Part shown: positions 16,015-55,359 of the stretch, piece by piece
How the letters are laid out: every line of letters begins with the position of its first letter
Numbering within the stretch: the stretch's first letter is position 1
Assembly (NCBI GenBank): GCA_036172245.1
Contig: JAYWIR010000002.1
Coordinates: forward strand, 2,790,001 to 2,854,000
DNA from: Raillietiella orientalis
Taxonomy: Eukaryota
DNA length: 64,000 nt
Direction of reading: 5' to 3'
Made by a program: the position numbers and the translations under genes
Notes under the pieces: generated by a model
The model's database searches: none
What the model was told of the DNA's origin: nothing
Seen by the model: only the letters and a program-made list of their open reading frames with translations

Positions 16015-19000
16015 TTCGCTTACCAGGACCTGGTGAAGGCATCTTCTTTCTCCTTGGTCCAAATGTTTTCTCTTCGTGTCATCTTGGATTTTTTTTTTTT
16101 TTTCCAGAGTAGCCAACATCAGACAGGCATTTCGGGATGGGGAGGGGAGGAGGGGCAGCCTTTACGCACACGGTCCTCGTTTGCGAGATACGTGAATTGT
16201 AGACCTTCGCTCACTTCTTGCCTTGCGAGAGAAACCTGCTGGTTCCTCTGGAAACCGTTCTCCAGCGAACCTGGTTGAATTTGTGGCTCGCGTGCTTCGA
16301 GAACCAGAAAAATGCCGTCTCGAAACACGCGGAAAGCGGAACTGTGCACGCTCTGCCCGCGAGCGGAGTTGGCGATGCAAGCCTTATCGGCAGCCCCCTT
16401 CTCTTGCCGCAAAAAGTGCTCCAGCTCCTTGCCGTCGCCTCTGCAAAGTGCACACCACTTCGGGGTGGCTCATGCATGGGCCCGCAAGCAGTTTTTTCAG
16501 CAGCTTGTTCTCTTTCTCTCCTCTATGGGTCGAATGCAGAGGTGGGGGGGAGGGGGGTGGATGGGCTGAGTTGGGGTAGCAGAAGAACAAGGGAAAGGCT
16601 ACACCTCTAGAAATCTCAGGCCTGATCACGAGACTCAAACCGTACTAGTTCGCATCCAGCCATCTTCCGTTCATATGTTTTTTTTTTCTTTGGTATTTCA
16701 TTTTATTTGCATCAGCAATGATGAAGATGAGCACACGTCAGCAGTCGTCGTTCTTAGGAGCGAGGGTCCATCGTGTGTTCTCTGTGGTCCTTTCGATTCT
16801 TCCACTGTTCGTCTTCCTGCCATTGGCTCGTGGACGTCTCTGATTCCTCAGTCCGAAACCTCCTCCTCCGCTTTTGATCAAATGTGTGTGCTTGGGTCTC
16901 GCTCCCCACGGATACTTGAACTCCAGGTGTTCTTGCGAAACGAAATCTTGCGTTCCCTCCGCAGCGGCGTCAGACGCATAGCACATCGCGAGGGCGCTCG
17001 GCCCAGGTCCCCTGGCAAGCGATCAATCGAACCGTGCCTTGCTAGAAGTGGTGTGTTAAACCTGCAAGCAGCAAGGAGACTGCGCCTGCAGAACGGGTAG
17101 CGCTCGTCGGTGCACTCGAAGAATCCTTGAGTGGAGGTCAAAGGACTTTTGAGGGAAGGTCCAGTCGAGACGTCAGGGTTGCGGCGTTTCGTCAGGGCTC
17201 CCTCGAAAGCGGCCACAACAACCTCTCGGAGGCGATAGTCTCACTCAGTGGTGACTTGTTGCTGCTGCTGCTGCTGGGGGACAATGCTCGCTCGCACACT
17301 GCTCGCGCTGCCCCCACCCCGTGAAAAGGAAGCGTACTCTTCCGGGCTATTTCCCAGCTGCAGACCGCACGGCACGAGTTGCTTCCTGAAAGGGAACCGT
17401 CATCCAGCTTCCGGGAAAACCGCGAATGGATTTCTCATTCCGACACGGGCGCTCCAGGGTGTGGTTTTGCAGTTTTACAGATTTTGGAAGGCAAAAAAAA
17501 AAAAAAAATGCCCAAAGCAGCCTCTTCCGGAGTGATGCCACGTTACAAGGAGCGTCGTCACCCCTGGGGTGAAGATGCGTGTTTATTTCATTTTATTTTT
17601 TCCTCGTCCCAAAGCGAGACCAAAACTTCGACAACGAAAGAAAGAGCTTGCTTGGCGCCGAGATTACTGCATGGTGCTAATGGATTCACGAGCCACGAAG
17701 GCTTTGTGGGTGGATCCGCGGGTCGTAGCTGCTGCCATCCCGAAGCGAACCTCGACTCCATCAAAGACCGAGACCGGCACCTCTGGTCGTGCGGCAAGGT
17801 GCGGAACGCCTTCCTGAAGCTGCGGGGACATAGAGCTTGCAACGAGGACCGTCCCCGACCCGAGCGAAAAGAACCGTTGGCTCTTGGAGATTCCTGCGGT
17901 TGTGGTCGCTTTCATGGGAGGGAACGGCGCCAAGCGCTTGACCTCGTCAGTCGGTAGGCATGGGCAGCACGGAACGGGGTGCGCGCGCGGACGACGCGGA
18001 GATGACCTGCTTGTGGAGGGGCTCTTCAGAATCGGATGGTTTCCAGCTTCTTTTGTGACTTCTGGTCCTGGAACTGTATCGGCTTCCCTGTCCTTTCGGG
18101 ACTATCCCCTTCTTCCTTGGTGCCGCCCCCAATTCGCCTCCTCGCTTGCTCGTTTCTGGAACCTCATCTCTGTGTAGGTCTGTCGGCGGCCGGGAAGACT
18201 TCCATCAGCTTCGCCCTCGAGAACATCCTGATCCACAATGGGATCGCCTCATACAGTCTGGACGGAGACAACATCAGGCACGGGCTGAACCGGAACCTCG
18301 ACTTCTCCGTGCAGGATCGCGAAGAGAACATCCGCCGCGTCGCCGAGGTCGCCAAGCTGTTCGCCGACTCGGGGGTGATCGCGCTCTGCAGTTTCGTGTC
18401 GCCCTTCGCCAAGGTGCATATCGGGGTGTTTCGTATTCGAGCCAGAAAACTGGACGCCCACACAGCCGCACCCAGATGCTCTCTTTTCTTCTTATCCCAT
18501 GTCTTCAGGACCGGGATGCGGCGCGGATCATCCATGAGGAGTCTGGCCTGCCCTTTTTCGAGATATACGTGAAGACGCCGCTGGAAGTGTGCGAGCAGAG
18601 AGACAGCAAGGGGCTGTACAAGAAGGCGAGGCTCCAGCAGATCACCGACTTCACTGGCATCGACTCTCCGTACGAGGAACCGCAGCATCCCGATCTCGTC
18701 CTCTCCACGGTCGGCTTCAGCGTTGATGAGTGCGTGGCCCAGCTCGTTTGCTTCCTGAAGGAGAAGGTAAGACATGCGCGCTGCTTGAACTGCAGGGCTG
18801 GGTTAGCAGGGGGATGCTCCTCCCGTCCCGCTCCTCATCCCTCCGCACGGGACGAACGGCACGCAGTTTCTGCGCGCCTCTGCCTCCGAGAGCTCCCGGG
18901 TGCGCTCTCCCGGCTCCGGATCCATCCTTCGGGAGGAGGGAAAGGTCGTCAATTATATATTTCCGCTTTTTTTTTCTTTTTTTTCCTGTCTCCCCTCTTC

Positions 19001-22000
19001 TTTCCTCTTCCTTTCCATGCCTATCCTTGCTCTACCGCATTGGAGACCTCGAGTCCAGGGACTGGTGGGTCCATCGGACTGGTGCGAGTCCGCTCAAGTC
19101 CCCGGAAGAACTCGTGGTCTGGCAGTGGACGCAGCGATCGATCGACGGACCCCATGGCAGTGTAGGCGGCTGCAAGGGGGTTTCCTACCCCTCCTCATTT
19201 CTTTTTGTTTTGTGGCTCTGGCGCCCTCAAGACGCGGGACATGAAGGTACGTGTGCCCTTCATCTCCGGCCCCATCTAACGTTCGCCCCTCCCTCCTTTC
19301 CCCTTTCTGGATGGCCGAAGGCGTCCGCTGGGTGGAGTTCATTCCGAACAGGAGTTGGTCGAGAGGCAGGGAGGGTCCGACGCAGCGCGTGGTGGCCATC
19401 GGCTTCCTGCTTCGCCTCCCTCCTCTCCATCTGGCGCGAGCTCCTCGCGACCACGTTGTCTCTCCTGCCCTCTTCCATGAAGCCTTCTTCTCCCATCTCA
19501 GTTGCTGCATCACGTGTTTGCTTCGGGAGTTCTCCCCTTTCCTTGCCACTCCCTTTTCGTCGCCTCTACAGCTCTCCTCCGCCTTTCCTGGGGAGCGGCG
19601 AACGGCAGGCGTGAAGGTGTGGGAGAATGAACCCGCGGAAAGGGTACGGGATCTCTCCCTAACTTCCTCTTATAGGATCCATAAATTCTGGGGTACAAGG
19701 AGGGGAGAGCGGGGGACCTGTGCTGCTGACGGATGTGCACACTCGGGTAGGGGACGTCGCAGGTTTTCCAGAGGATCCCGCGGATGTATATTTCCCGGCA
19801 AAGGGGCTTGCGTTTATCAAGGAGTTCCGGTCATAGAGAAGAGTTTGCTGATCGGGGGGGGGGGCCTTTAGATGCGGAATTCGTCTCCCGAGGTCCCTCG
19901 CCTGAGGGACAGCTGTGGAAAATGGCAGAGCAGAGTGCGAGGGAGAAGAGAGGGGATCGGGAATCGAACCGTGCTCCCGGTTTCCACGGGGTCATGGGTC
20001 AGTAGATCTATCGAGTTGGAGCCACGCTGCCATGCCGCGGGGGGTAGGGGGTTCTTGCGTTTCTTCCCAGCGACCGCGGGACTCGGCCGTGCGGGAAGGA
20101 GGAAGGGTGCCATTGGGGAAAGAGAAGGGCCGGAATTTCCATCGTGCTAGCGATGAACTGAGACATCAGAGTCCTCCCCGCTTTTTCAGTGGAGATTCCC
20201 TGCATGCTCCTCCGAAAAATAGCGACCTATGTTCTACGCCGGTGAGCATCATCTCGCATCCGGGGCTCCCAATCCTCCTCGTTTTTCCCGGTCGGCCAGT
20301 GCAATTGGGTTCTCCCTCGTTCCAAAGCAGAAGCGCGTGCTCATGGGGATGAGGAGGGGGGGATCTCGTCCCTTTACCCACTTTGTTTCCCACGGATGTC
20401 CTTGCCTAGGACCCTCCTCCTGCCGAGAGAGTTGCTCGATCTCCTGATGGGGTGGCGCATCTGTCGCGCAATCGAAAAGTGGAGGGGAAGAGGAAAAAGG
20501 ATGGGTAGCGATCCCAGGCGCGCACACATCCCCTCCCCCCCCCTTCCCTCTTTCCTCTCGTAGGGGGCCACTTTTTCTACTCACCTCCGCCCCCGCATTC
20601 TTGCCTTTCGCCCCGCTCCTATGCGCGCTCCGCATGTGCCCTCTGCGAGTGAAGCAGAAAGTCTCGTCGTGTCCTCAGGGAGTCATTCCGATGTCCGACG
20701 AAGTTCTGGAACTGTTCGTTCCCGAGGAGCGCGTCCCGGAACTGCTCGTCGAAGCGTCCGGTCTGCCGGCCCTGGATCTGAGCGACCTGGACGCTCAGTG
20801 GCTCCAAGTCCTCGCCGAGGGCTGGGCTACACCCCTGCAGGGCTTCATGCGCGAGCTAGAGTACCTGCAGAGCCTCCACTTCAACTGCCTGCGCCAGGAC
20901 CGCCTCGTCAGCCTCAGCGTCCCCATCGTACTCCCGGTGTATGCAGAAGACCTGCCCCGCCTCCGCGGAGCTACTGCGGTAGCGCTGAAGTTTCGAGCGC
21001 GCTGCGTTGCGATCCTTCGTCGGCCGGAAATCTACGCCCACCGCAAGGAGGAACGCGTCTGCCGCCAGTTCGGCACCAGCAGCGCGAAGCATCCCTATAT
21101 CAAGGTCTGAGCAACGATCCTCTCCTTCCAAGGGAGCGGACAGGGGTGGGGGAGCTGTTGACCGACAGTGACGAGGACTGCCGCTTACGCTTCCTTCCAG
21201 ATGATTTACGAGAGCGGCGACTGGCTGCTGGGCGGAGACCTCGAGGTGCTAGAGCGCATTCGCTGGCACGACGGCCTGGACCACTTGCGCCTGACTCCGA
21301 AGGAGCTGCGTCAGCGATTCCGGGAAATCGGCTCCGACACGGTGTACGCCTTCCAGCTGCGCAACCCGCTGCACAACGGACACTGCCTCCTGGTGAACGA
21401 TGCGCGCCAGCGGCTGATGGAGCTCGGCTTCAAGCGTCCCACGCTGCTGCTGCATCCCTTGGGCGGCATGACCAAGGCGGACGACGTCCCCCTCCATGTC
21501 CGAGTGCGCCAGCACGAGGCCGTTCTCCAGGACGGGAAGTTGGCGGGCGCGGAGCATACCGTCCTTGCCATCTTCCCATCTCCGATGATGTATGCCGGCC
21601 CCACCGAGGTGAGTGTGGCGGCTGCTGCTGCACAATCTCCTCTCCCCTCCTTTCTCCTCGCTTCGCTCTCCCCTTCCCTCCACCACCACCATCTTCAGTA
21701 ATAATGGCAGGTCCCCTCCCCTTTCCCCTTTTTTTACTGCTCCCCTTCTTCTTGTGAAGCACCGAGACCCTATTTCCCAAGTTCTCCCGGAGACTCAGGC
21801 CTCTTCCTCCCTCCCTTTCCTTCTCTCAGAGCCTCCGAGAGCAACAGGGTTCTCTCCATCCATGAAGGGCCTTTCTCCAGGTGCAGTGGCACGCCCGGAC
21901 ACGGATGTTCGCCGGTGCCAACTTTTACGTTGTCGGTCGCGACCCGGCCGGCCTCCCGCACCCGGAGAAGCCCAATATCGACCTGTACGATCCCACTCAC

Positions 22001-22322
22001 GGCGCCAAGGTGCTCGGGATGGCGCCGGGTCTGACGGAGATGGAGATCATCCCCTTCCGCGTCGCAGCCTACGACAAGACACGCGCTAGCATGACCTATT
22101 TCGAGCCGGAGCGGGTTCAGGACTTTATCTTCATCTCGGGAACGAAGATGAGAAGTGAGGAATCCGCGTTCCTTTCTTGTCATTTCCCTAACGTGGGAGC
22201 GTGGCCCGCGTGGTTTCTTTCTAGCGCTGGCGAAATCTGGCTCCGAGCCACCTCCAGGATTCATGTCCGAGAAAGGATGGGAGGTGCTTCAAGACTACTA
22301 TCGCTCCTTGGAACAGGAATAA
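15703..22322 (+). CDS. PAPSS: Bifunctional 3'-phosphoadenosine 5'-phosphosulfate synthase (APS kinase plus ATP sulfurylase). Exons 15703-15817, 18178-18413, 18509-18766, 20679-21104, 21201-21608, 21881-22154, 22225-22322; first coding exon not fixed
   Basis: The seven GT-AG-bounded exons sum to 1815 nt in one frame (604 aa plus TAA). Motifs: [33 protein letters not shown] (P-loop), [52 protein letters not shown] (HxGH), [52 protein letters not shown]. Confidence 0.97.
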
Positions 22323-25300
22323 AGGGGAGCAGCCTTTGCATCCCCTCTGCCCGCTTTCCTGCATCATTCCCGCGAAAGGGGAAGCGGGGGAGAAGGAGGA
22401 AGGAGGGTAGCTCCTTGTGAGCTTTTGGAATTCTCCGAGTAAGCGTGGAGCTTCCCGACGGTTTCATACCGGGTCTTCTGAGTAAGCACTGCATTCCTCC
22501 GAAAGGCACCATCAGCAGTACTGGGGGGAGCGGAAACTAGACGGAGGACTCCATGTGCAATGACATTGGTAGGAGGGGTCATGGGTGACCCTTTAAGGGA
22601 GAGGAGGATCCCTTGGCTCAGGACATCCACGCACTTCGAAAAGAGTAAGGGAATTACGGAGGATGTTCACTTCAGTGGCAGCCAACGGAAGATCCTGGGA
22701 GTCGGGAAGGGATGGGAGCGTCTCGCTTTCCGGACTGCCAGTCGGCGGGAACTCCTGCTGCTTATGCACTGACACCCCATCCTTCTTTTTCTTCCTGCAA
22801 ATGCGCCGCACTTGGTGATGACGAGGGTCTTGCCTTCCTCGATTCAGGGGAGAGGGACGGGGGAAAACGAGGAGATGATCAGTAGCTAAGGAGAGATCTG
22901 GATATCCCTGGCGCCGCTGTTTTCCCTGCTGCTGTCTCTTCTTATTGCTCCCTCCATCGGAAATCCTTCGGTGGGAAAAAGTCAGGAAGAACAGAGACCA
23001 ATCGGAAGAGCGAATAGTCCTCCTCGCGCTATCCATTTTCTTCCTGGCGCGGGATGGTGTTTTCTGTCTCCTCCCGACGGAGGACTTCAGTCTCGGGAAG
23101 AAGCCACACCTTGAGACGAGCGGCTCGGGAGGTGCCTCGGACGAAGGGTTTACGCGGGTCCAAAGGGCACCACGAAGTTTTGGCAGAGGGACGGACAGCG
23201 GAGCACACTTCGCGGTCAGTAGAAGACCTCCAAACCCCCTTTCTTCTGGTCGGAAGCGCAAGTTGGCTTCCCTCCCTCCTTTCCCTTCTTTCTCCTCTCT
23301 CAGCTCTCCCGTCCTATTTTTCTCTCGTTCGTTCCACATCTTCGAAAAGGACCTCTGACTTCTGTGGGGGAGAACAGAAGCGGAGGAAGCGTTGCCGCCG
23401 AGAGAGGATGGCGGTAGGTCAAGGAGACCGCGAGGAATGCACCGGTCGTGAAGCCGGGGAACCGGAATCCGGACCGCGCTTCTCCAGCTCCGAGCAGGCG
23501 CAAATGCGCGCGCCACCCAGCGTGCCCTTCGGGTGCGAGGAACTCTCCGGCAGTGTGAGGTGCGACGTGAAAAGACGATGAGGTTCCTTCTCCTTTCGTT
23601 CATCTCTTCCTCCCGAACTGAACGCTCCGTTCGCGACCCCTGGCGTCACCGCACCCCGCCGTGACGAGGTGCGAACCCGTCCGACGAGCGCGGTTACCCC
23701 CGAGTCGAAGTTTGCCTCTGCTGCAGCAAACTCACTGACCGACAGCACTGGCCCTTAAGTGTGTGTTTCCTGCTTTCGTTTCCGCTTGCATGCTGGTGGC
23801 AGTCTTCTCCCCTCCCCTCCGGCGAGGAGGGGGTGGCTTCATAGAATTCGTTCCGTGCAGCACTTCGGGAGGACTCAGGTCGCTTGGATCACCGCATCCT
23901 CGCTCAAGCCTCCCCCTCCTCCTCGCGATCTCTGAATTTCCCTCGCCTGTTACATTGCGGGAGTAGGAGATCAAGTATGCCGCCGTCATCTCTAAGAAGC
24001 GAGTCATGCGCAGCAGCAGCAGATGCAAGCCGCCAGCGGATTCGAGGTCAGCTAGCTGGTGGCATAGCAATTCTCGCTCTCGACGCTGAGGTCGCTGAGC
24101 GATTTTTAGGATGACTAGGAAAACTAACTGGCAAGGAGGCTTTGCCCCTACCATCCCTCTGTTCGTTTCACCCTTCCTTCAATTCTGTAACTTCCCACGT
24201 TAGGGGCCATGTGGTTACGTGTGCTCTCCGCGCGTGGCACCAAGAGTCGCTCGGAGATCTTCCTTTTTTCCTCCTCCCCTCCTTCCTTCTTCACACCATT
24301 CTCTCCTGCTCCTTTTATTTTCTTGTCGGCCTTATACCCTCCAACGCAGAGTTGCAACTCGAACAAGCAGGGTAGGCCTGGCATTCCCGTCGCCGAAGGA
24401 CCTGCCGCCTCCCGACCACCACCCACGATGGGAACCCTAGTCACCGAGTGAAGCGGATGGAGGTCGGGAGGAGGACTACACTCTGGGATGATGTGTTTCT
24501 GGTAACACCACGTCCGGGTCTCTAAATGGGATGTCGTGCCTCCGAGTGCTCGTCTGCCTCTCTCTAAAGGAGTTTATGCCATGGTGGAATGGAAGCTGAC
24601 CCTTGATTCTTCCTGATCCCTGACGTGATTGAGGATACATCAGGCAGCCAGATCCACCGCTGCTCTTCTGCTCTCCACTTGAGGCGTTTTGTGGCAGCGA
24701 GCACGAATTGCGGTTGGATGGCAATACGCGCGGCACGGAACTCGTCTGCAGGCTCGTCTGTGCGCATAGGACGGTGAAGAGATGCATTGTGTGATGTCTT
24801 TGTACAATCTTCGATGACCACACTGTTACTGATTAGTTGAGACATCAGTATGTGGAAAATGCCTTCGAGGATCACCAGGATGGCACTCTTTTATCCGTCA
24901 GCATTGCGGACCCACGGACTCCCATCATCAGCATTCATGGGGTTCGTGGAAAAAAGCTCTCCCTTCTGGGAGGTCGTCTTTAGGGAGTAGCAAGGGAGTG
25001 GGAGAACAGCTGCACGCATAGCTTTGGATTCCCACAGGCACTACACCTTGGTGTGATCCAAGGAAAGAGGAGCTCAGGGACTTTAGGAATTCTTTAATCC
25101 ACTGTTCCCATAGGATGCCTGCGCGCCATATCGGGAAGGTCGTCTCCCTTGCAACAACATAACCACTGAGGATGGGATCTTCCAAGGATGCGGCGTTCCC
25201 CAAATCTCCTTTTTGTTCTGCGGTCACCATTGTTTTGCAAACAACTTTCCTTCTTCTGTCTCTCTCCCTCGCTGACGGTTCCTCCTTTCCGGCGAGACCT

Positions 25301-30857: not shown

Positions 30858-31835
30858 ATGCATAACTGGAAAAGCGAAACTGCCATTGGTGAGCGCTTCA
30901 AGAATTACGCCAAATCATGCACTTTACAGTACAAACCTCAATGGCTAGAAGGTGCGTGTGCCGTGCGTATTCCAGCTGAATCGAAATGGAGTTTTGCTGA
31001 AAAAGCAGCGTTGAAGAATGGTATCCGAGTTCAGCTATGGCACTTTTGATGCTGCGAATGCGGACAGTTGCTTCTGGAGAAACCAAAACAACTCCAAGAG
31101 TAACTCGTACTGTGATTGTAGTACAATAAACAGAAACGAGAGTAAGTAAGTCACTTCCGCTGTTTGCATTTGTGATAATCCTGCTGGAATTCGGTCTGCC
31201 GAAAGTGATATTATTCAAAACGGTTGTAGTTATTGATTACCTGATATTACCTGTGAATAAGAATGAGTGTAGAGTACGTTTCTGAAATCTGCTTGTAATT
31301 TTTAATTCATCAGTTTTTCTTTTTTTTTTTAAAAAAAAAAAAAACTTTTTGTGAACAGATGTGAACTACAATCCCGATGATTCAGTGAAAGGAGAGATTG
31401 CATCTGAAATAAAGAATATTCTCAAGGTGGCAAGGATTCAGCATTTTTCTTCACAAGCCATGAAGTTTTCCAAAACTCTGCTCCCTCGGATAGCAGAAGA
31501 AGTGATAAGCAAAGCAGAAAAGGAAATATGTGGTATCAGGTACTTCAAATTTGATGCTTCCAGGATGAATGAGGTTTTTTATGTGTTCTAGGGGTTGTAC
31601 ATTACGTGTGTTTTACGTCGACGAAAACAGATGTCGCAAAGAGTTGGGTTCTTTCAAGATAGACTACGACTCGGTTTCCACATTCGAATTGCTCCTGATT
31701 CTCCACAGAATCACGTACCCTCTGATCAATGTGTCATCAAGTTTTTTGAGAAGAGCATTCTATTCAGTAGGTTCTATAGAAATAGATGATCAGTTTGAAT
31801 TGCTGCTGAAAAAGCTGTACAGAACATACGATTGA
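30858..31835 (+). CDS. DDIT4: DDIT4/REDD1 family (RTP801_C domain; scylla/charybde-like) mTORC1 repressor. Exons about 30858-30888 (tentative), 31359-31539, 31592-31835
   Basis: Spliced peptide ...LLPRIAEEVISKAEKEICGIR|GCTLRVFYVDENRCRKELGSFKIDYDSVSTFELLLILHR...FELLLKKLYRTYD* matches the family signature (RIAxDVL..S..EPCGLRGC.....V.TFEL.L.....F.L.KKKLY). The 52-bp intron 31540-31591 restores frame exactly. Confidence 0.88.
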
Positions 31836-31932: not shown

Positions 31933-32776
31933 TTGCAAATTAATTGTATGTATTTTTTCTTTGCAGAGTGTTTTTTACTATAACTATCCCACTAATTGAA
32001 GCATCATGCTCGAGTCAATGAACTTTGAAAATATGATACCAGGCCTGGTGTTAAATTCACATTCCACGTGAAGTGTACACAAAATCTCAACTTGTGGAAA
32101 ACCCATCAGTTTCTTTTCATGCAAAACAAATGAATAAATTTACGTTTACAACTGGAATGTCGTTTCTTTCAATGGCACCTTTCACGTCATATTCAAGATG
32201 CATTCTATAAAGGAGTCAGCATCTCATTTTATTCTATTAGTCAAAAAAAAAAAAAAAATGATGCGTTTTGCTGCCGGGATATTTTCACTTTTGCCGTTCA
32301 GCCAATCATTCATAACAAAACAAACTTTTCTCTCCAAACGGCAGGGATCTAAAGTACAGCAACAGCAACAACAAAAATTATTTTTTATCCAAAGGGGCTG
32401 GAAGAACCCGTATTCTAAACTGTCTGCACATTCCTTGTAGGGTGTTTACGGTTTTCAGTTCTTGAAAATTTCCATATGGAAGAATAAAATGAGATGCTGA
32501 CTCAGGGCAGTGAGTTTCTATTAGCCTGAAAATAAACATCGGCTAAACACCCGGATTTTCAAGAGATAGCGCAGTAACCTCGAGGTGTTAGCACTTGGTC
32601 TTATCTGCTTTCTTCATCCACTGCTGAAGCGGATGCATCTTGGAAAAACAAAAGCTTCTTTTTCGGTATTCGATCGCTTTTCGAAGAGAAACGAAAGAAA
32701 GAAAACTCATTTCTAGATCGCTTAAGATACCCTCTGATCTCTGTGTTTGCTTGCTTACCGGTTTCCCTTTTTTTTT

Positions 32777-33380
32777 GGGGGGGGGGGGGGGGGGGGGCTT
32801 TGGTTGAATTTGAAGGAGGGAGGGGGGGGCAACACGGCTCGCGCGAAAAACGTGCCCAGTGCGAGTGCGCACGCGCGAGCATCCACGAGCATCTCTGACC
32901 CGCAGCCGCTTTCTGGACCCGCACTCGCGAGTTGCTCTGCAAGTGACGGAGGAAAAAGTGGAGGGTGTCCCGCGACGCACACACATCTCGCCCCCCGTCC
33001 ACGGAGTTGCGCGCGCAGCTCGCTCGGCGGTCGGAGCAGCAGGGAGATTCGGAGCGCGCGCGAAACAAATTTATGCAAATTTCCCCGACCGCGGCTCTCG
33101 TTCCACCAGGGGCGAACCCGATGACGCAATTCCCTTCGGCGGAGGCCCTGAGCGTCACGTGGTTCGAAGCGCGCGCTTCCGCTCGCGCGCGCAGGCGCTC
33201 GAGGAGAGGGTGTCCGACCCGTCCGTGCTCGTCTCGTGAGAAAGTGACCTGGAGAGGAAGGTACGCTCGCCGGCGGAGCCTGCGGGCGGGCGAAGGGGGG
33301 GAAGATCCCGCAAGATGCGACACGCTTTGCATCTGGCCGACAGGACACGCGTTCTCCATCGCGCGAAGTGCGCAGTTCCG
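32777..33380. promoter_or_regulatory. CpG-island/promoter-like block beginning with a G21 run
   Basis: Abrupt AT-to-GC switch; dense CGCG; E2F-like GCGCGAAA at about 32841 and 33058; octamer ATGCAAAT at 33073-33080; E-box CACGTG at about 33156. No linked gene identified. Confidence 0.4.
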
Positions 33381-35484
33381 CCGATTTTTTTTTTCTTTTC
33401 CCATGTGGCGATCACCCCAGCAGCAGGGTTTACTCTGTTCTCATCCATCAGAATTTATCATCCTACTGCCCCACTTGTTCTTTTTTTTTGAAAAAAAAAA
33501 AAAGAGGCAACTGAAGGAAAAGTGACCGATAAAAGATATTCATGCATGTGACCTCAGAGATGCTCAGCCCCTCTTCGGATGTCCAGAGACTGAGGTGTCG
33601 CGAAGCAAATGCGGGGAGCCGCCAATGATGGAACGAAGTCCTCTTCCTCCAAACGGGCTCCTTCCTCCCTCCTTCCTTCCCCCACAGAACCGCTGATGAC
33701 TGAGGCGGCGGCCCGTCTCCACAAGAGAGAGCTCCGCGTTTTCCACGGGGTTCCCCCTGTGGAAAACGCGGGGCACTCCGGGCCGTTTCCCGAAACCCGG
33801 GAAGGTCGGATCCTCCCTCCCAAGCGAGCACGGAGAAGTGACTGGCCTCACGGCCTGCCTTGTCTTCTGGACGGTCTCTACCCTCGGGCGGCAAAAGGAT
33901 AGGGCGTTCCTTGCGCCCTCAGCTTCGTGTCCGGGAAGACTGCCGGTGCGCGCACGATCACCTTCCTGCCCCTTGAGGTCCCCTTGAGGACTCTTCTCTC
34001 CGAAGGGCACTCCTCCCCCTGCCCTCTGTCTCCGTTTGGGGAGCCGCGAGCGCCTTCTGATCTTCCCCCGCCCCGGCGGCGGGCGGCCGGCCCACTCGCC
34101 TCCACGGATCAACGGGACGAGTCCAGCGGAGTGGGGCGCGCGCGCGCGCCGATGTTCCCTGGAAGCAGGAAGGGAAGGGTAGGGGCGAGGACAAGCTCAA
34201 TTCCTGGGGGAGCAACCCTCCTGCCATCCTGCGCCGCGAGGGGCAAGCGGAAGGAGAGCAGAGAGCCGGATTCGTCGCTCTGGGAATCCGATCTCCAGGG
34301 AGACGGAGGAATCTCACCACTGGGTGTACTGCCTCGAGGCGCTCTGCTGCTACTGCCACCCGCTCTCCCTGCCGCTGGCGGTCGTCGCCCACCGTCTGTG
34401 TTGGCTGCAGCCTCCATCGGGGGATGAGTTGGTGGGGGTGGGGGGGGGGGGCGTGGACGAGGACCGTCCTGCTGCGCTCTCCGCAATTTCCTCGAGAAAC
34501 TGTGGGAAGGCACTACTCTAAAGATGGATGCCGGCCATTAGACGTAGCGCGCCGAGGATGGGAACTGACCCACAGTTCCCTTCCCCTCCTTCCCTTCCCC
34601 TATTCCTCCCCTGCTCCCGGCCTGGAACCGCGGTGGCGGTCGGTCGATTGATGCAGCGGAACGACGCATGAGCTCGGTAGGTGGCGTCAGGCAGCGCAAA
34701 CCAGCTGGAAAGGAGGCCACGGGTAAGGAGACTTCCGGAATGATGCAGAGCACCTCTTCATGAGCCCCGGACGTTTGGAATCGAGCGCGCTGCTGCGCCG
34801 TCTACAGGCATAGGAAGGAACAGGGGAGGTAGTGGCGTAAGGAAGGCTGGAAACAAGGGACACCACGGGCCTGTCGTGAAGGGAGATGGAACCGTGTGAC
34901 TCCCACCTCGTTTACCTTCCTCCCTCTCTCCTTTCCTTCCCTCTACTGTCCCTCGTCCCACAAAGGGTGTTTTCGGCATCCTCCGGAGGTCATTTTTAGA
35001 TTCACCACTGGGGGGCAGCAGTTGCAGGGAGGAGAGAGAGAGAGAAGTTGGGAGAAGGAAGGGGATTATCTAGAACAGGCTCAGCAGAAGCGTCAGTCGG
35101 ATGGAAGAATCGGGGGAGGATCGGATGAGGACCAACGAGATGCTCGAAGGGGCTCCCGAGGAGCTGCTTGGGGGAGCGGACGATGAAGAGAGAGGCGGAG
35201 GAGAAGAGCCCAGTCTGGCTGGAGGGCGAGGTCTCGCGCCGCCAGCAAAACTGCAGGGAAAGTAGGGTTGCGCGCGTGCACACCGACAGTCGTCGGAGGC
35301 CTTGTGGTCAAGGCTTCCTCGTGTGGCACCATGCGTCGCGGGTTCAAATACTTCGGCAGAAACTCTGACGCCACTGCGTCGTCGGGTTCCGAGTTTCTCC
35401 TGCAATGGCGCTGGTTGGCCGATGACATTCGGGCGTGGCACCGGCTGTGGATTAAGTCGGAGGCCCCCGATGAAGGCGGAACAA

Positions 35485-36077
35485 TGGGAGTCAACCTTCG
35501 GGTCCTCCCAGGAATCAAGGAGTGGGGAGTTCCCCCTCCTGTCGTGCAACGGAGAGCGGACCCCCCAACCGGGGGATCCCTCCGGTTTCAAGATGGAGCA
35601 GGAGCCCTAACGGGCACCTCTCCAGTTTTTCAAAGGAGTGGACCCCCCTGTTGGGGGATCCCTCCGAGTCGTCGCCTCTTCACAGAGTGTGCACAAGGAA
35701 GCAAGCGAGAGCGATTCCCTGTGGGAAGCTGCAGCGCCCCTTCTGAGTTTCGGAAGCGTCCCTTCGGGGTTCTCTTCAGAGGAGTGAACAGGAGCGGTTC
35801 CCTTGCGGGTTCCCTCCGGAGAAGAAATTCCTACAAGCGGATCCTTTCCGGATTCCCTTCGGAGAAGTTGAAATGGAGAGGACCACCCCCCATTGCGAGG
35901 GGTGTCCCTCCGGATAGAATGAGGAAGGAGATTCCCTGCGGGGTTCCCCTTCGGAGACAACCAGGGTGGGAGGTGCGATCTCCCCCGTCCGGGGGGTCCC
36001 TCCCCTAGAGTGAGAGGAACGGACTCTGAGCCCTTCCTGGATTCATAGGGCGGACCGCATTCCGGGGTGCCCCCTAT
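35485..36077 (+). repeat. Degenerate array of about 12-14 GC-rich stem-loop units, period about 35-55 nt
   Basis: Units such as GGAGCGGTTCCC-TTGC-GGGTTCCCTCC (35791-35817), GGAGTGGACCCCC-CTGTT-GGGGGATCCCTCC (35635-35665), TGGAGCAGGAGCCC-TAAC-GGGCACCTCTCCA (35594-35624) and GAAGCGTCCC-TTCG-GGGTTCTCTTC (35753-35777). Confidence 0.8.
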
Positions 36078-39000
36078 CCTGAAGAATTACACACCTCCCT
36101 GCGGGTTGCCGCGGGCGGAGGAGCGTGGAAACAAAACACCGACAGTCGTAGGGACGGTTTGCGAGCGCTATCCCTCCCCCCTCCAAAGGAGGATGGGGTA
36201 GGGTCAACAGAATCACCGCAGCACGGACCCAACGCAGAAAAAGAAGGCGTCTTAGGGCTGTGAGGGAAGGGAGACCAGGGAGAGAGGCAAGAGACAGCCC
36301 CTTCCAGTTCCTGACCCTCTTTTCTCCTTCTTCTCCCTCTCCTTGTCCTCTTTCCTCCCTTCCTCCTTTCTTCCCTTCCTTCCTCCTCCTTCCTCCTCCT
36401 CCCTTCCTCCCTTTTGTCCAAACCTTAGTTCAGCACTCTCGCTGCCGGATGACTGTAGGGCGAGCGGGCTCGCACCTTCCCTGGAGCAAGGCGCACTCCG
36501 GAGGAGAGAGCATACCTGAGTCGAAAACATCGTGATGAGAATGCGCACGAAGAGGAGAAGTGGGAAGGAAAGGGGAGGAGAGGGAGGGACCTTGAGACGA
36601 CCAGTAACTCCCTCTTTGCCGTCCACTTTCCTTGACAGGATGGGCTCCGAGGGAAAGCCGCACCATTTGGAAGCTGCGCTCCCTGAACCACAAGACTTCC
36701 CCCTCGAACTCCCCGGCTTCCAAGAAGGGCTCCTTCCAGGAAGGCGGGCGGGATTTTCGACCAGCATGGCAAAAGACCACGGAGTGCTGAGGGCAGCGGA
36801 GCATCCTTCGCTCCTGCCGCAGCAAGCTGGGGCTGTTTCCGAGGGAACGCCCTGCACAGGCGGCCAAGGTCATCCAGAAAGTTCCATCCCGTCCTCGCCG
36901 GGATTTTTCCAAGGACGCTGCGCTCCCCCGAGAAGCGGGCTAGGAGCCGCTTCATTCTTCCTGCTCCTGCTCGAGCGTAAGCTCCGCATGGGAAGGATCC
37001 AGGGAAGGGGGAGGGAGATGAGCGTGGCCCGTCCCGAGCCTGTCACTTGCGTAAGTCTTGATCAGGGGATTCATGTGGAGGGACCAACCATGAGTTTCCT
37101 GGGGCGGCAGGGTGCCAGAAGTCAACTTCTTCAGGGACTAATGAAGATCATTCGGACCTGTGTGTTTTTCCCGTCACGACCCCTACTTTTGCTCCCTCCG
37201 TCCCCCTTGACCGTGGGCCCTGTTCCCTGTCTCCATCCGGCTCTCGACCATCTCTTCGGCGCGTTCCTCGCTCTGCTCAGCGGTTGGTTCAGCGGTTCAG
37301 ACGGGCTCAGCGGTTGGTTCTTGATGCGACCTCGGCTTTGACCGCAGAGCCACCCGAGGCTTCCCGTTTCCGGGGTGCTCTCCCGCGCATCCTTTCCCGG
37401 CCCGCCCCACACTTCCCTCCAGAGCACCGTCGCCGGCGTCCTTGGAGAATCCAAGGATGCGAAAAACCTCAGGGCGCGTCGTCCGCTGCCGGAAGAGATA
37501 GATGGACGCAGCGCGCAGCCGTCCTCGCTGTCAGGAGCCTCCGTGCATCTCGCGCCATGGGCGGCAACCGTGCCCGAGGCGACTCCTCAGCGCGGCGCCG
37601 AAAACGCGCCCGTCGTCCAAGGAGCTGCCGAGGGACGTCTGCTCCGGGGATCGCTTCCTTTTTGCCCGGAGCGGGTGGGCGGATGAGGCGAAGGGACGGC
37701 GGAAGGACGCGGAGTGCGCGCGGCCCCGACTTGGCCGGCCTTGGCTGCCCCTCCTCCCTTCCCTTGAGGGGATGAGCGATCACCTGTCATCACGGATGTC
37801 GCCTGCCCGCGTCCAGAACTTCTTTCAGCCGCTTTTGGAGGCTTCGAGGCAGCATCAGCGTGAGGCGGGAAAGAAGTCCGGGACTGGGCGACTGATTCTT
37901 CCTCGAGGGAGTGTCGTCGCCAGCACGGGCACTCTCGCCGTTGCGGGAGCCTGGGCAACACCGGAAACGCCGGGATAGGCATCGAAAAAAGACTCCTGAC
38001 AAACAGGAGAGCGGAGAAGCATTTCGGGAAAAGGGGGACGGTCTCCAGCATGCAGAGCTCTCGAGACGTGTCTGCTTAGAGCATCGGTTGACCTCGACCT
38101 TCCGTTCCCTCTCCTTCCTGCTCGCGAGATTTCTCGGAGAGTAGACGAGGGCGGAGAAGAGCCGGGATTTCCCCCACCTGACCCGGGAAGCCAGGAAGGA
38201 GAACCTCAGAGCGCCGGCAGCGGCTTCAGAGAGTGGACAGGTTCCCGGCGACCCTTAACCCTCCCCATCCATCTCCATGCACGCACGCAAAACAAAGGAA
38301 GGAAAAGAATTTTTTTTTTTCACTTTTATTGTCTTTGTCCCCTCCCTCTTCTCTCCTTCCCCCTTCACAGGCTCGTCTGTCCCGTACCAACCGGTTACCG
38401 ACCAGCCCGCGTGGCTGTACACGCTTCCGGCACGTGAGTCCTGAAGCGAGCTTCCCGTCCTGGATCCCCGGCCCATCAGCTTCAAGCAAGGAAGAAGATT
38501 CTTCGTAAGGAGGGGAAGGGGAGGGGCAAGAAAAGAGCCTCCCGAAACGAGACGTGGAAAACAGAGATGGTGAAGGAAGGAGAAGCTGCGCCTCTGGGAG
38601 CGGTCCGAGAGAACCTTCCACTTAACGCGGCGGCGATACGAGGAAATCTGCGGAGCGTGGGGAGTAGCCAGCCTCGAGACGGTGGTCCCGAACGAGTGGG
38701 CGCAGGTTTTCGAGCTGCTGTTCGCTGTTCCTCTCGACCTCGTCCCACTTTCGAGGTGAGGGGTCGAAGGGGTCGATGGGCATCATCATCATCAGCAGCA
38801 GCAGCATGGGATCGGTCTTCTTCGATGGCATGCGCATCTGCTACAGCTGCGCTTCCCAGAATCTTTGCTCTCTCCGACTGCTTGGAGATCGGAGCCGAGA
38901 GTTCGTTCCGGGTATGCCCGCAGCAATTCTCCCGGTCCTCTTCCCGTTACGAGGGCTTTGTCGGGATCTTGGGATCCCCAGGTGGCGATGTCCCTCAAGG

Positions 39001-53959: not shown

Positions 53960-55359
53960 GTTTCGTCGAGAGGGAGTTGTAGGAAGCAGATGCTCGATAA
54001 AATGGAGGAGTCCTGCGGCGAAGGAGCGTGATTTGGAGGTCTGAAGAGGCCGATGAGCACCTCTCGACCGAGTGAGCATCGGCCTCTTTCGGTGGCCGTC
54101 AAGGAAGACCCAGCAAAAGCCTACTCGAACCCACACAAGTACACGAATGGTTTCTTTCCTGGAACTATGCCCGCAGACCCAACATCCAGTTGTTTCGAAT
54201 TCCTGCTGGGGTGTGAAGTACAACGTTGGCTCGCGTGTTCTTCGTTACAGCGTAGGACGTCAAGGGATTTCAGCAGCTAGCACTGAAGACAAAACTCCTT
54301 TGACGTGGTTGAGAGGAGAGGAGGGGAGGAGGGGGAGAAGAAGAGTTCTGGATCATTCTCCGGGTGGAACAGTGTTTCCTACGCGTAGTGTGCTGTGTCA
54401 CTCGTGCTTTTGTACCAAGCACGGTCTGAGGATTTGGTGCCACCTAATTGAAACAACCCGGAGAAAAAAAGGTATCTCAGTTTGCATGAGCTTCATGGTG
54501 TGGTTCTTGTATCTCCGTAGATGTACCGAACCTTACGGAATAAGACAAAGGTTGCAGCGATCAAGCAAAGACCAATCTGTCATCCAACCAGATATTCCAA
54601 CATGTGGATTTCAGAAAGCAGACGTTGCAAAAGAGTTCCTTGCTTCGGCTGTGAAGCTCGGTTTCCTCAATCAGATGCAGGCAGAAGCATCCTAATTGAT
54701 CGGTATTCTGTCAGGTGACGAAGAGACTGACCAAAGATCGGATCATTTCGACGAAGCAAAAGCAACACGCTTTCCTGATGCTCCAGGAAAATGTTGAAAA
54801 TGCCTGACATTGCTTGTAGTCGCAGCCCGGTTTGGTTTACCGGACTCGGCACTCTATTCGAAACTCGTGAAAGAATCAGACGTGCGATCGTCCATCTCAC
54901 AAAGTGGATCAGCTCATGCTAAGATCCTCGTTCCACGTGTAAAGAAGAGCGAGACTTCTCGGATGAGAAGGAACCGATGACGAAGGACGCATAAAGATCA
55001 AAGGCAGCAGCCATCCGTCAGCTGATCCAGCCTGGATAGACATTGATTAGCCTGATGTGTGTAGCCTGGTGATTCTTCAGTATTCGAGCCAACGTTGTGC
55101 TTCACACCCCAGCAAGAATTCGAAACAACTGGATGTTGGGTCTGCGGGCATAGTTCCAGGAAAGAAACCATTCGTGTACTTGTGTGGGTTCGAGTAGGCT
55201 TTTGCTGGGTCTTCCTTGACGGCCACCGAAAGAGGCCGATGCTCACCCGGTCGAGAGGTGCTCATCGGCCTCTTCAGGCCTCCAAATCACGCTCTTTCGC
55301 CGCCGGACTCCTCCATTCTTATCGAGCATCTGCTTCCTGCAACTCCCTCTCGACGAAAC
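53960..55359. repeat. Near-perfect inverted duplication: arms 53960-54233 and 55085-55359, spacer about 850 bp
   Basis: Arms differ by 7 substitutions and 1 indel over about 274 bp. The ORF track also shows mirror ORFs (54053 + / 55265 -; 54072 + / 55246 -). Confidence 0.95.

Follow-up and report, generated by a model that had tools for sequence, protein, structure and literature searches.

A tandem array of about 14 diverged, GC-rich hairpin units occupies roughly 600 bases (positions 35485..36077) of a 64,000-nucleotide stretch of Raillietiella orientalis DNA (GenBank assembly GCA_036172245.1, contig JAYWIR010000002.1, positions 2,790,001 to 2,854,000 of the forward strand). This stretch is hereafter called the window, and all positions are given in its coordinates. 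Hairpin potential, symmetry between the two strands and arm matching specific to each unit were demonstrated for the array. The explanation that we prefer, tentatively and with somewhat less than even confidence, is that the array is an old, non-coding quasi-palindromic minisatellite whose arms have been re-matched at the DNA level by hairpin-templated copying.

Folding, arm matching and strand symmetry

The hairpins are real and go beyond chance. An initial annotation of this DNA had described an array of stem-loops and proposed comparing their folding with that of dinucleotide shuffles, and local windows pass this comparison on both strands. The mean 40-nucleotide folding energy gave z scores of -3.42 (plus) and -4.48 (minus) relative to 100 dinucleotide shuffles, none of which folded as well on either strand. 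In four GC-rich control stretches of the same length nearby, folding is worse than in their own shuffles (z scores of +1.9 to +5.9). Among the 600-nucleotide bins of the window, 35401-36000 has the lowest GC-corrected folding residual (-3.3; the next lowest is -1.4), and the 40-nucleotide folding residuals delimit a hairpin-rich domain at 35201..36200 that holds the array. All ten 100-nucleotide bins of this domain have negative GC-corrected residuals (-0.6 to -6.35), four of them below the 1st percentile of the window (-3.13), and the adjoining bins on both sides are positive. Folding of the whole array as one 593-nucleotide molecule is weaker evidence than local 40-nucleotide folding, with z scores of -1.71 on the plus strand (6 of 100 shuffles as good) and -3.37 on the minus strand, where units 3 to 5 pair across units. 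A crude gapless palindrome finder missed the bulged units.

The unit positions of the initial annotation were borne out. Thirteen of the 14 intervals form a single hairpin on the plus strand, closing at or within 1 nucleotide of the interval ends (-6.1 to -22.4 kcal/mol); the interval 35707-35745 folds partly (-8.2 kcal/mol) and closes with GAAG/CTTC once it is widened to 35698-35743. The hairpins have 7 to 15 pairs each and 153 in total on this strand, and the helix listing displays the common design that had been described, with an outer stem, a bulge on the 5' side, a GG/CC step, an inner stem and a short loop. The outer helix has 3 to 6 pairs and reads GGAG/CTCC in eight units (extended forms counted), GAAG/CTTC in four, and AGGAA/TTCCT and TAGGG/CCCTA in one each. 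Most units have a 5'-side bulge of 1 to 3 nucleotides and, inward of it, a GG(A)/(T)CC step that is often followed by a small mismatch. The inner helix is a C-run paired with a G-run (CCC/GGG, GCCC/GGGC, ATCC/GGAT, ACCCC/GGGGT). Loops are 3 to 5 nucleotides long (one is about 9) and include no motif common to all units (AACC, TAAC, TGTT, TGT, TTCG, TTGC and others), and the two C(UUCG)G loops noted earlier are present on the plus strand in units 1 and 7. The GGA triplets lie within stems or just 3' of the hairpins, not in the loops.

In an arm-swap test, chimeras were built in silico from the 5' half of one unit and the 3' half of another, giving 26 swaps per unit, with fixed arms of 14, 18 or 22 nucleotides, on both strands and with RNA or DNA parameters. 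Native pairings of the 14 units beat deranged ones in all 12 settings (z scores of -4.18 to -6.06), and the ten clearly homologous units gave z scores of -3.1 to -4.65. Units 4 and 14 pair better with their own arms than in any of their 26 swaps, and the own-arm pairings of units 7 and 13 are worse than 19 and 17 of 26 swaps, respectively. Complementarity between a unit's own arms (3.93) exceeds cross-unit complementarity (0.39) and also the similarity that a given arm shows from unit to unit (1.27), with Mann-Whitney p values on the arm scores of 6e-4 (14 units) and 0.027 (the core ten), for pairs that are not independent. Neutral decay from one palindromic ancestor predicts that the match within a unit is no better than the similarity between units, so something keeps the arms of each unit matched. 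Similarity between units is likewise uneven along the module. Cores score 0.077 per nucleotide versus -0.156 for shuffles, and the linkers, taken as the 12 nucleotides after each hairpin, are at shuffle level (-0.06 versus -0.079). The own-arm matching, together with linkers that have diverged to shuffle level and cores that have not, supports the earlier view that the array is not the product of simple minisatellite decay.

Evidence on compensatory change points both ways. Compensatory changes, as claimed in the initial annotation, find support as unit-specific arm matching (arm-swap z scores of -3.1 to -6.1), but not in a column-wise covariation count, which does not rise above shuffles. In a model-fitted alignment the column-wise covariation score was 0.366, versus 0.348 +/- 0.037 for shuffles (168 of 500 as high), and paired cells made up 85.2%, versus 84.5% in shuffles. 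The RNAalifold consensus of ten units reached -1.8 kcal/mol with eight pairs and a covariation term of -0.16. However, the outer helix is out of register in the model-fitted alignment, which also includes one minus-strand row, and the MAFFT and RNAalifold unit alignments are likewise structurally mis-registered, so the column-wise count is weak evidence either way. The shared consensus pairs in the model-fitted alignment are mostly conserved G-C pairs and do not covary. The clearest column change is from GGAG to GAAG with CTCC to CTTC, seen in units 6, 7, 9 and 11 with no mismatched unit. These units alternate with GGAG units, so the change may have arisen once and spread by the copying of two units as a block. 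More generally, all units are paralogues of one array, and independent compensatory events are therefore few.

Little separates the two strands. Several mismatches had been read as G-U wobbles pointing to a plus-strand RNA, an argument that failed on counting. Minimum-energy folds contain 4 G-U pairs among 153 on the plus strand and 9 among 159 on the minus strand, and the summed unit energies slightly favour the minus strand (-214.2, versus -199.4 on the plus strand). Transition mismatches in the arm-to-arm alignments, read on the plus strand, comprise 5 G.T and 7 A.C, so on either strand A.C clashes and wobbles are about equally numerous. A.C clashes as frequent as wobbles are unlike functional RNA stems and are expected of a palindrome at the duplex level. 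The traits specific to one strand are the purine-rich linkers (63% purine on the plus strand, 104 of 165) and the two TTCG loops, also on the plus strand.

Readings of the array at the DNA and RNA level

In the DNA-level account, the module would be a GC-rich quasi-palindrome of roughly 30 nucleotides followed by a free linker, with a period of about 43 bp. The array would have originated by duplication of units, through unequal exchange or slippage during replication. Once they had diverged, each unit would have retained its dyad symmetry at the DNA level through copying of one arm from the other via the hairpin (intra-strand template switching, or quasi-palindrome correction), with weak selection possibly helping to maintain the arms. 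Any effect would be that of non-B DNA, in which extrusion of hairpins or cruciforms could stall replication and promote further slippage or exchange, and the array would not be a dedicated RNA.

The two strands are alike in energies, fold z scores and G-U counts, as expected for duplex DNA rather than RNA, and neither the strand nor the choice of DNA or RNA parameters alters the strength of the arm-swap result. Template-switch hairpins, as presented by Monttinen and Loytynoja 2022 (PMC8794818), involve reverse-complement repeats, multi-base 'compensatory' changes and stems repaired without base-by-base selection, and the same paper describes how one event can create a perfect stem or fix the pairing of an existing one. 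The array resembles these hairpins in its arm-specific matching and in a possible loop inversion between units 3 and 5. Whereas the cases in that paper are RNA genes followed along species trees, the array is one locus with no tree, so that no event can be polarised and the template-switch mechanism is one that we infer. Units 3 and 5 agree at 27 of 27 stem bases and differ at all four loop bases, in the bulge and in both flanks, and the reverse complement of the unit 3 loop AACC (GGTT) agrees with the unit 5 loop TGTT at three of four positions. A loop inversion of this sort is possible, and is the kind of trace that a template switch leaves, although it amounts to an anecdote.

Several observations sit poorly with this account. 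Taken neutrally, it requires that most of the 14 units underwent arm correction, all inside 600 bp. Template switching also leaves unexplained why the cores are alike while the linkers are at shuffle level, a pattern suggestive of constraint on the module. GC-rich DNA around the array folds less well than when it is shuffled, so the regional mutation regime is not one that makes hairpins in general, and the purine-rich linkers and two TTCG loops of the plus strand are not explained by a pure duplex model. Membership among minisatellites is mixed, in that the array has a regular period and a family of copies with 66-84% identity, yet yields no Tandem Repeats Finder rows and has shuffle-level linkers.

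Dyad-symmetric tandem repeats and non-B DNA satellites, such as centromeric ones, have internal dyads and cruciform potential, and are long and homogenised between units. The array is like them in having tandem units with internal dyad symmetry that could form hairpins or cruciforms; it differs in its length of 0.6-1 kb, its restriction to a single locus in the window and units too diverged for Tandem Repeats Finder. Bacterial REP/BIME elements and the GC clusters of yeast mitochondria are short, GC-rich imperfect palindromes, sometimes clustered, with stems better kept than loops. They are, however, dispersed, present in many copies and bacterial or organellar, whereas the array is one tandem cluster in apparently nuclear eukaryotic DNA. 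If the DNA-level account is correct, the array would be a compact natural case of hairpins that appear to covary without any RNA, a caution for covariation-based searches for non-coding RNA, and possibly a case study of template-switch repair of quasi-palindromes in a eukaryote.

Alternatively, and with lower probability, the array may be a structured RNA module within a long non-coding RNA, an intron or an untranslated region, in which 12 to 14 bulged hairpins dock an RNA-binding protein and selection keeps the pairing. A hairpin excess that is unique within the window, the unit-specific matching of arms and the recurrent 5'-side bulge are consistent with such a module, as are the purine-rich linkers and two C(UUCG)G loops of the plus strand. 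By eye, a cluster of promoter-like motifs with a GT donor-like site also lies about 2.2 kb upstream on the plus strand. However, the strands give no signal (plus has 4 G-U pairs and 7 A.C clashes, minus 9 and 5), the fold of the whole array on the plus strand is not significant (z -1.71), the RNAalifold consensus is weak (-1.8 kcal/mol, covariation -0.16), and column-wise covariation in the mis-registered alignment is 0.366 versus 0.348 +/- 0.037. No Rfam family matches, and with units that are all paralogues the joint change of GGAG to GAAG and CTCC to CTTC could be a single copied event.

The layout of the array is most like that of the XIST A-repeat region, although it lacks the sequence features of that family. 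In PMC10870365, GC-rich self-complementary cores of the A-repeat region alternate with less conserved linkers, and the sequence varies from repeat to repeat; hairpins can form within one repeat, and pairing between neighbours is also possible. Conserved cores with free linkers, laid out as in that account, favour an RNA module here too. The array shares with the A-repeats tandem self-complementary GC-rich cores and free linkers (14 hairpins at 43.3 +/- 9.1 bp) as well as cross-unit pairing, found here among units 3 to 5 in the minus-strand fold. In contrast, the A-repeat cores are well conserved and carry a GAUAC element, while the array has a mean column identity of 40% and no shared loop motif; the A-repeat linkers are U-rich in 6-8.5 copies, whereas those of the array are purine-rich on the plus strand in about 14 copies. 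XIST is moreover a known long non-coding RNA, and no Rfam model matches the array. A more specific version of the RNA account, to which we give slightly less credence again, is that the array could be a transcribed, selection-maintained scaffold for many copies of one RNA-binding protein, a functional analogue of the A-repeats in a eukaryote that is not a mammal and probably an invertebrate, belonging to no described RNA family. If an RNA reading is correct, the array would represent an undescribed modular protein-docking RNA outside mammals. On either account, DNA or RNA, the tandem repeat is unusual, with arms that resemble their own partner more than the same arm in sister units and with linkers that have fully diverged.

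Known RNA classes were also considered. CsrB and RsmZ are bacterial small RNAs that show GGA motifs in hairpin loops. A sponge of this type was rejected for the array, in which GGA lies in stems or after hairpins and not in loops, and whose neighbouring genes are of eukaryotic type. Processing by Drosha and Dicer needs stems of about two helical turns. A cluster of microRNA or other small-RNA precursors, as had been suggested, was found unlikely, since the stems are too short (7 to 15 pairs) and interrupted by bulges. Rfam 15 at gathering score gave no match in the 64-kb window, and at E<=1 it gave nine weak matches over 34800-36800, one of which overlaps the array. This match, to mir-373 on the minus strand (35557-35662), has 24.3 bits, far below the gathering score of 69. 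ARAGORN found no tRNAs in the window, a CRISPR-like array was considered and rejected, and the positions of poly(A) and TATA hexamers gave no usable transcript model. No paper on this sequence turned up in literature searches, which were aimed at mechanisms and not at this locus.

It is unlikely, though it fits some of the data, that the array is an enhancer, silencer or insulator built from about 14 modules, each a pair of inverted sites for a DNA-binding protein with sequence specificity. The candidates would be a Rel/NF-kB-type dimer, for which we assume the consensus GGGRNWYYCC, or, under the same low probability, a zinc-finger protein reading GGGRTCCCTCC. The consensus pairs of the array are mostly conserved in sequence rather than covarying, and its strand symmetry suits a duplex target. 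The window holds 20 matches to GGGRNWYYCC, versus 11.1 +/- 4.2 expected, and 9 of the 20 fall inside the 593-bp array, at 7 places and in 6 of 14 units. However, only 6 of 14 units have the motif, and the degenerate pattern follows from the make-up of the units as G-runs and C-runs. The distance from CCC to GGG varies (loops of 3 to 5 nucleotides, one of about 9), that between the outer halves varies more, and such variable distances between half-sites would suit a rigid dimer badly. Nor would binding sites be expected to show arm-specific matching beyond the conserved core.

Less probable still, the array may be a piece of a dispersed satellite or transposable element with many genomic copies, such as the subterminal repeats of a DNA transposon. 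The GC-rich block around the array does contain other inverted repeats (53960-54233/55085-55359, 97%; 39328-39433/39643-39751, 83%). However, no second copy of the array, direct or inverted, was found in the 64-kb window, where the best BLAST match outside the array has an E value of 0.89 and the best match to R1, a covariance model trained on ten units (all except 1, 2, 6 and 13), has 14.3 bits (E of 1). Transposase and reverse-transcriptase domains were likewise absent from the 320 window frames scanned (22, 150 and 148).

A constrained coding exon was ruled out and is very improbable: frames are open over the array on the minus strand (35607-36086, 159 codons, the open frame already seen in the initial annotation) and on the plus strand (35187-36008, 273 amino acids), but frames of similar length are common on both strands across the GC-rich block, codon-position GC is flat in both (0.59/0.63/0.62 and 0.58/0.64/0.57; the PAPSS exons of the window contrast with about 0.4 at the second position and 0.8 at the third), Pfam domains are absent from both, the plus-frame protein had no match among 1.84 billion representative proteins and the minus-frame search scored none of 87 candidates, and the unit spacings, as noted earlier of the unit lengths, keep no reading frame.

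Individual units and their similarity

The units are listed here with their minimum free energies in kcal/mol on the plus and minus strands. Unit 1 (35485..35510; -11.5 plus, -11.6 minus) has TGGGAG/CTCCCA in its outer helix and ACC/GGT in its inner helix around the loop TTCG. Unit 2 (35518..35540; -14.7 on both strands) combines an outer AGGAG/CTCCT with an inner helix of flipped polarity, GGGG/CCCC. Unit 3 (35550..35584; -20.6 plus, -24.7 minus) contains CGGAG/CTCCG, GGA/TCC and CCCCC/GGGGG, with the loop AACC and a 3-nucleotide bulge on the 5' side, and unit 4 (35594..35624; -18.3 plus, -20.2 minus) contains TGGAG/CTCCA, AGG/CCT and GCCC/GGGC with the loop TAAC. The helices of unit 5 (35635..35665; -21.5 plus, -25.0 minus) are GGAG/CTCC, GGA/TCC and CCCCC/GGGGG, and its loop is TGTT. 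Unit 6 (35698..35743) is degenerate and enlarged, with GAAG/CTTC outside and TTCCC/GGGAA inside, and the interval 35697-35744 folds at -14.8.

Unit 7 (35753..35777; -6.8 plus, -5.5 minus) is weak, with GAAG/CTTC, CCC/GGG and the loop TTCG. Unit 8 (35791..35817; -13.5 plus, -12.4 minus) has GGAG/CTCC, GG/CC, a TT.TT mismatch and CCC/GGG around the loop TTGC; unit 9 (35835..35859; -7.3 on both strands) has AAG/CTT and GGATCC/GGATTC around a loop of 5 nucleotides. In unit 10 (35875..35911; -21.1 plus, -25.0 minus) the helices are GGAG/CTCC, GGAC/GTCC and ACCCC/GGGGT, and in unit 11 (35924..35952; -12.4 plus, -14.1 minus) they are GAAGG/CCTTC, GA/TC and TCCC/GGGG. Unit 12 (35968..36004; -22.4 plus, -20.6 minus) pairs GGGAGG with CCTCCC and GATCTCCC with GGGGGGTC, the latter with two G.T pairs on the plus strand. 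The weak unit 13 (36015..36038; -6.1 plus, -10.0 minus) has AGGAA/TTCCT and GG/CC without an inner helix, and unit 14 (36046..36077; -15.0 plus, -12.9 minus) has TAGGG/CCCTA, GG/CC and ACC/GGT. Beyond the last unit, a flanking hairpin (36090..36127; -19.5 kcal/mol) has its outer arms in reversed order (CCTCC ... GGAGG) and has TCCCTGCGGGTT in common with TCCCTGCGGGGTT of unit 11; it is possibly a rearranged 15th unit. Upstream of the array, a 52-nucleotide palindrome (33727-33778, 81% complementary) is centred on GGGGTTCCCC, a decamer that is also present in unit 11.

Loop centres are spaced 31-70.5 bp apart (mean 43.3, standard deviation 9.1). A search for direct repeats recovered only one family, with three copies of 66-84% identity at spacings of 40 and 43 bp, of which unit 8 is the reference copy; unit 9 is 84% identical to it over 32 nucleotides. 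BLAST within the array aligned unit pairs at 71-84% identity. A MAFFT alignment of the 14 units had a mean column identity of 40% and one invariant column, and Tandem Repeats Finder returned no rows over the array at score 30 and none in the window at score 80. On its training units, R1 matched unit 11 best (29.3 bits) and unit 3 with 24.7 bits, and at E<=10 it did not recover units 1, 2, 6 and 13. The most divergent units are those at the edges (1, 2 and 13) together with the enlarged unit 6. Short consensus patterns were only mildly enriched, and a metagenome scan with the 26-letter pattern common to units 3 and 5 gave no matches.

Genomic surroundings

The array lies 2.7 kb inside a GC-rich block and about 2.2 kb downstream of a promoter-like stretch at 33060-33265. 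By eye, we take this stretch to be a promoter-like cluster with an exact ATGCAAAT octamer, TGACGCAA, CACGTG and the splice-donor-like AG|GTACGC. Should the cluster be real, transcription on the plus strand could continue into the array. The block itself (32800-56000, about 23 kb) has 55-62% GC and a CpG observed/expected ratio near 0.9. No Pfam domain was found in it, and a codon-periodicity scan of the block gave trinucleotide-repeat artefacts only. It is rich in purine/pyrimidine microsatellites, such as TTCCTCCC at 36346-36413, and outside the array it folds worse than shuffles. At its start (32768-32830), GC jumps abruptly from below 40% to above 60%, exactly at a run of nine T followed by a run of 21 G and more G-rich sequence. 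Other GC transitions in the window are gradual, and this one may mark either a join in the assembly or a natural boundary.

From the RTP801_C domain and the order of the PAPSS domains, we take the window to be eukaryotic and probably animal DNA. A PAPS synthase gene (18006-22417, plus strand) has the animal-type order of APS kinase, PUA_2 and ATP-sulfurylase and a GC content at third codon positions of about 0.8. The APS-kinase match changes frame near 18.4 kb, which could reflect a short intron, a frameshift or an assembly indel, and the best relatives of this exon are PAPS synthases and kinases of many phyla (42-67% identical). An RTP801/DDIT4-like gene of two exons follows at 31355-31832 on the plus strand. 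Its RTP801_C matches have E values of 1e-4 and 7e-10, and the junction of the two frames has GT...AG-like borders. The AT-rich sequence of this gene sets it apart from the PAPSS gene at a distance of 10 kb, and a protein search with the RTP801-like exon scored none of 40 candidates.

The window also contains several smaller repeats. The inverted repeats at 53960-54233 and 55085-55359 (275 bp, 97% identical, about 850 bp apart) may be a foldback or terminal-inverted-repeat element. A second inverted repeat (28391-28540/31275-31432, about 150 bp, 80% identity) lies on either side of the sequence upstream of the RTP801-like gene and is probably a small dispersed element, as is, probably, a direct repeat of 78 bp with 95% identity (60718-60794/63232-63309) in the AT-rich part of the window.

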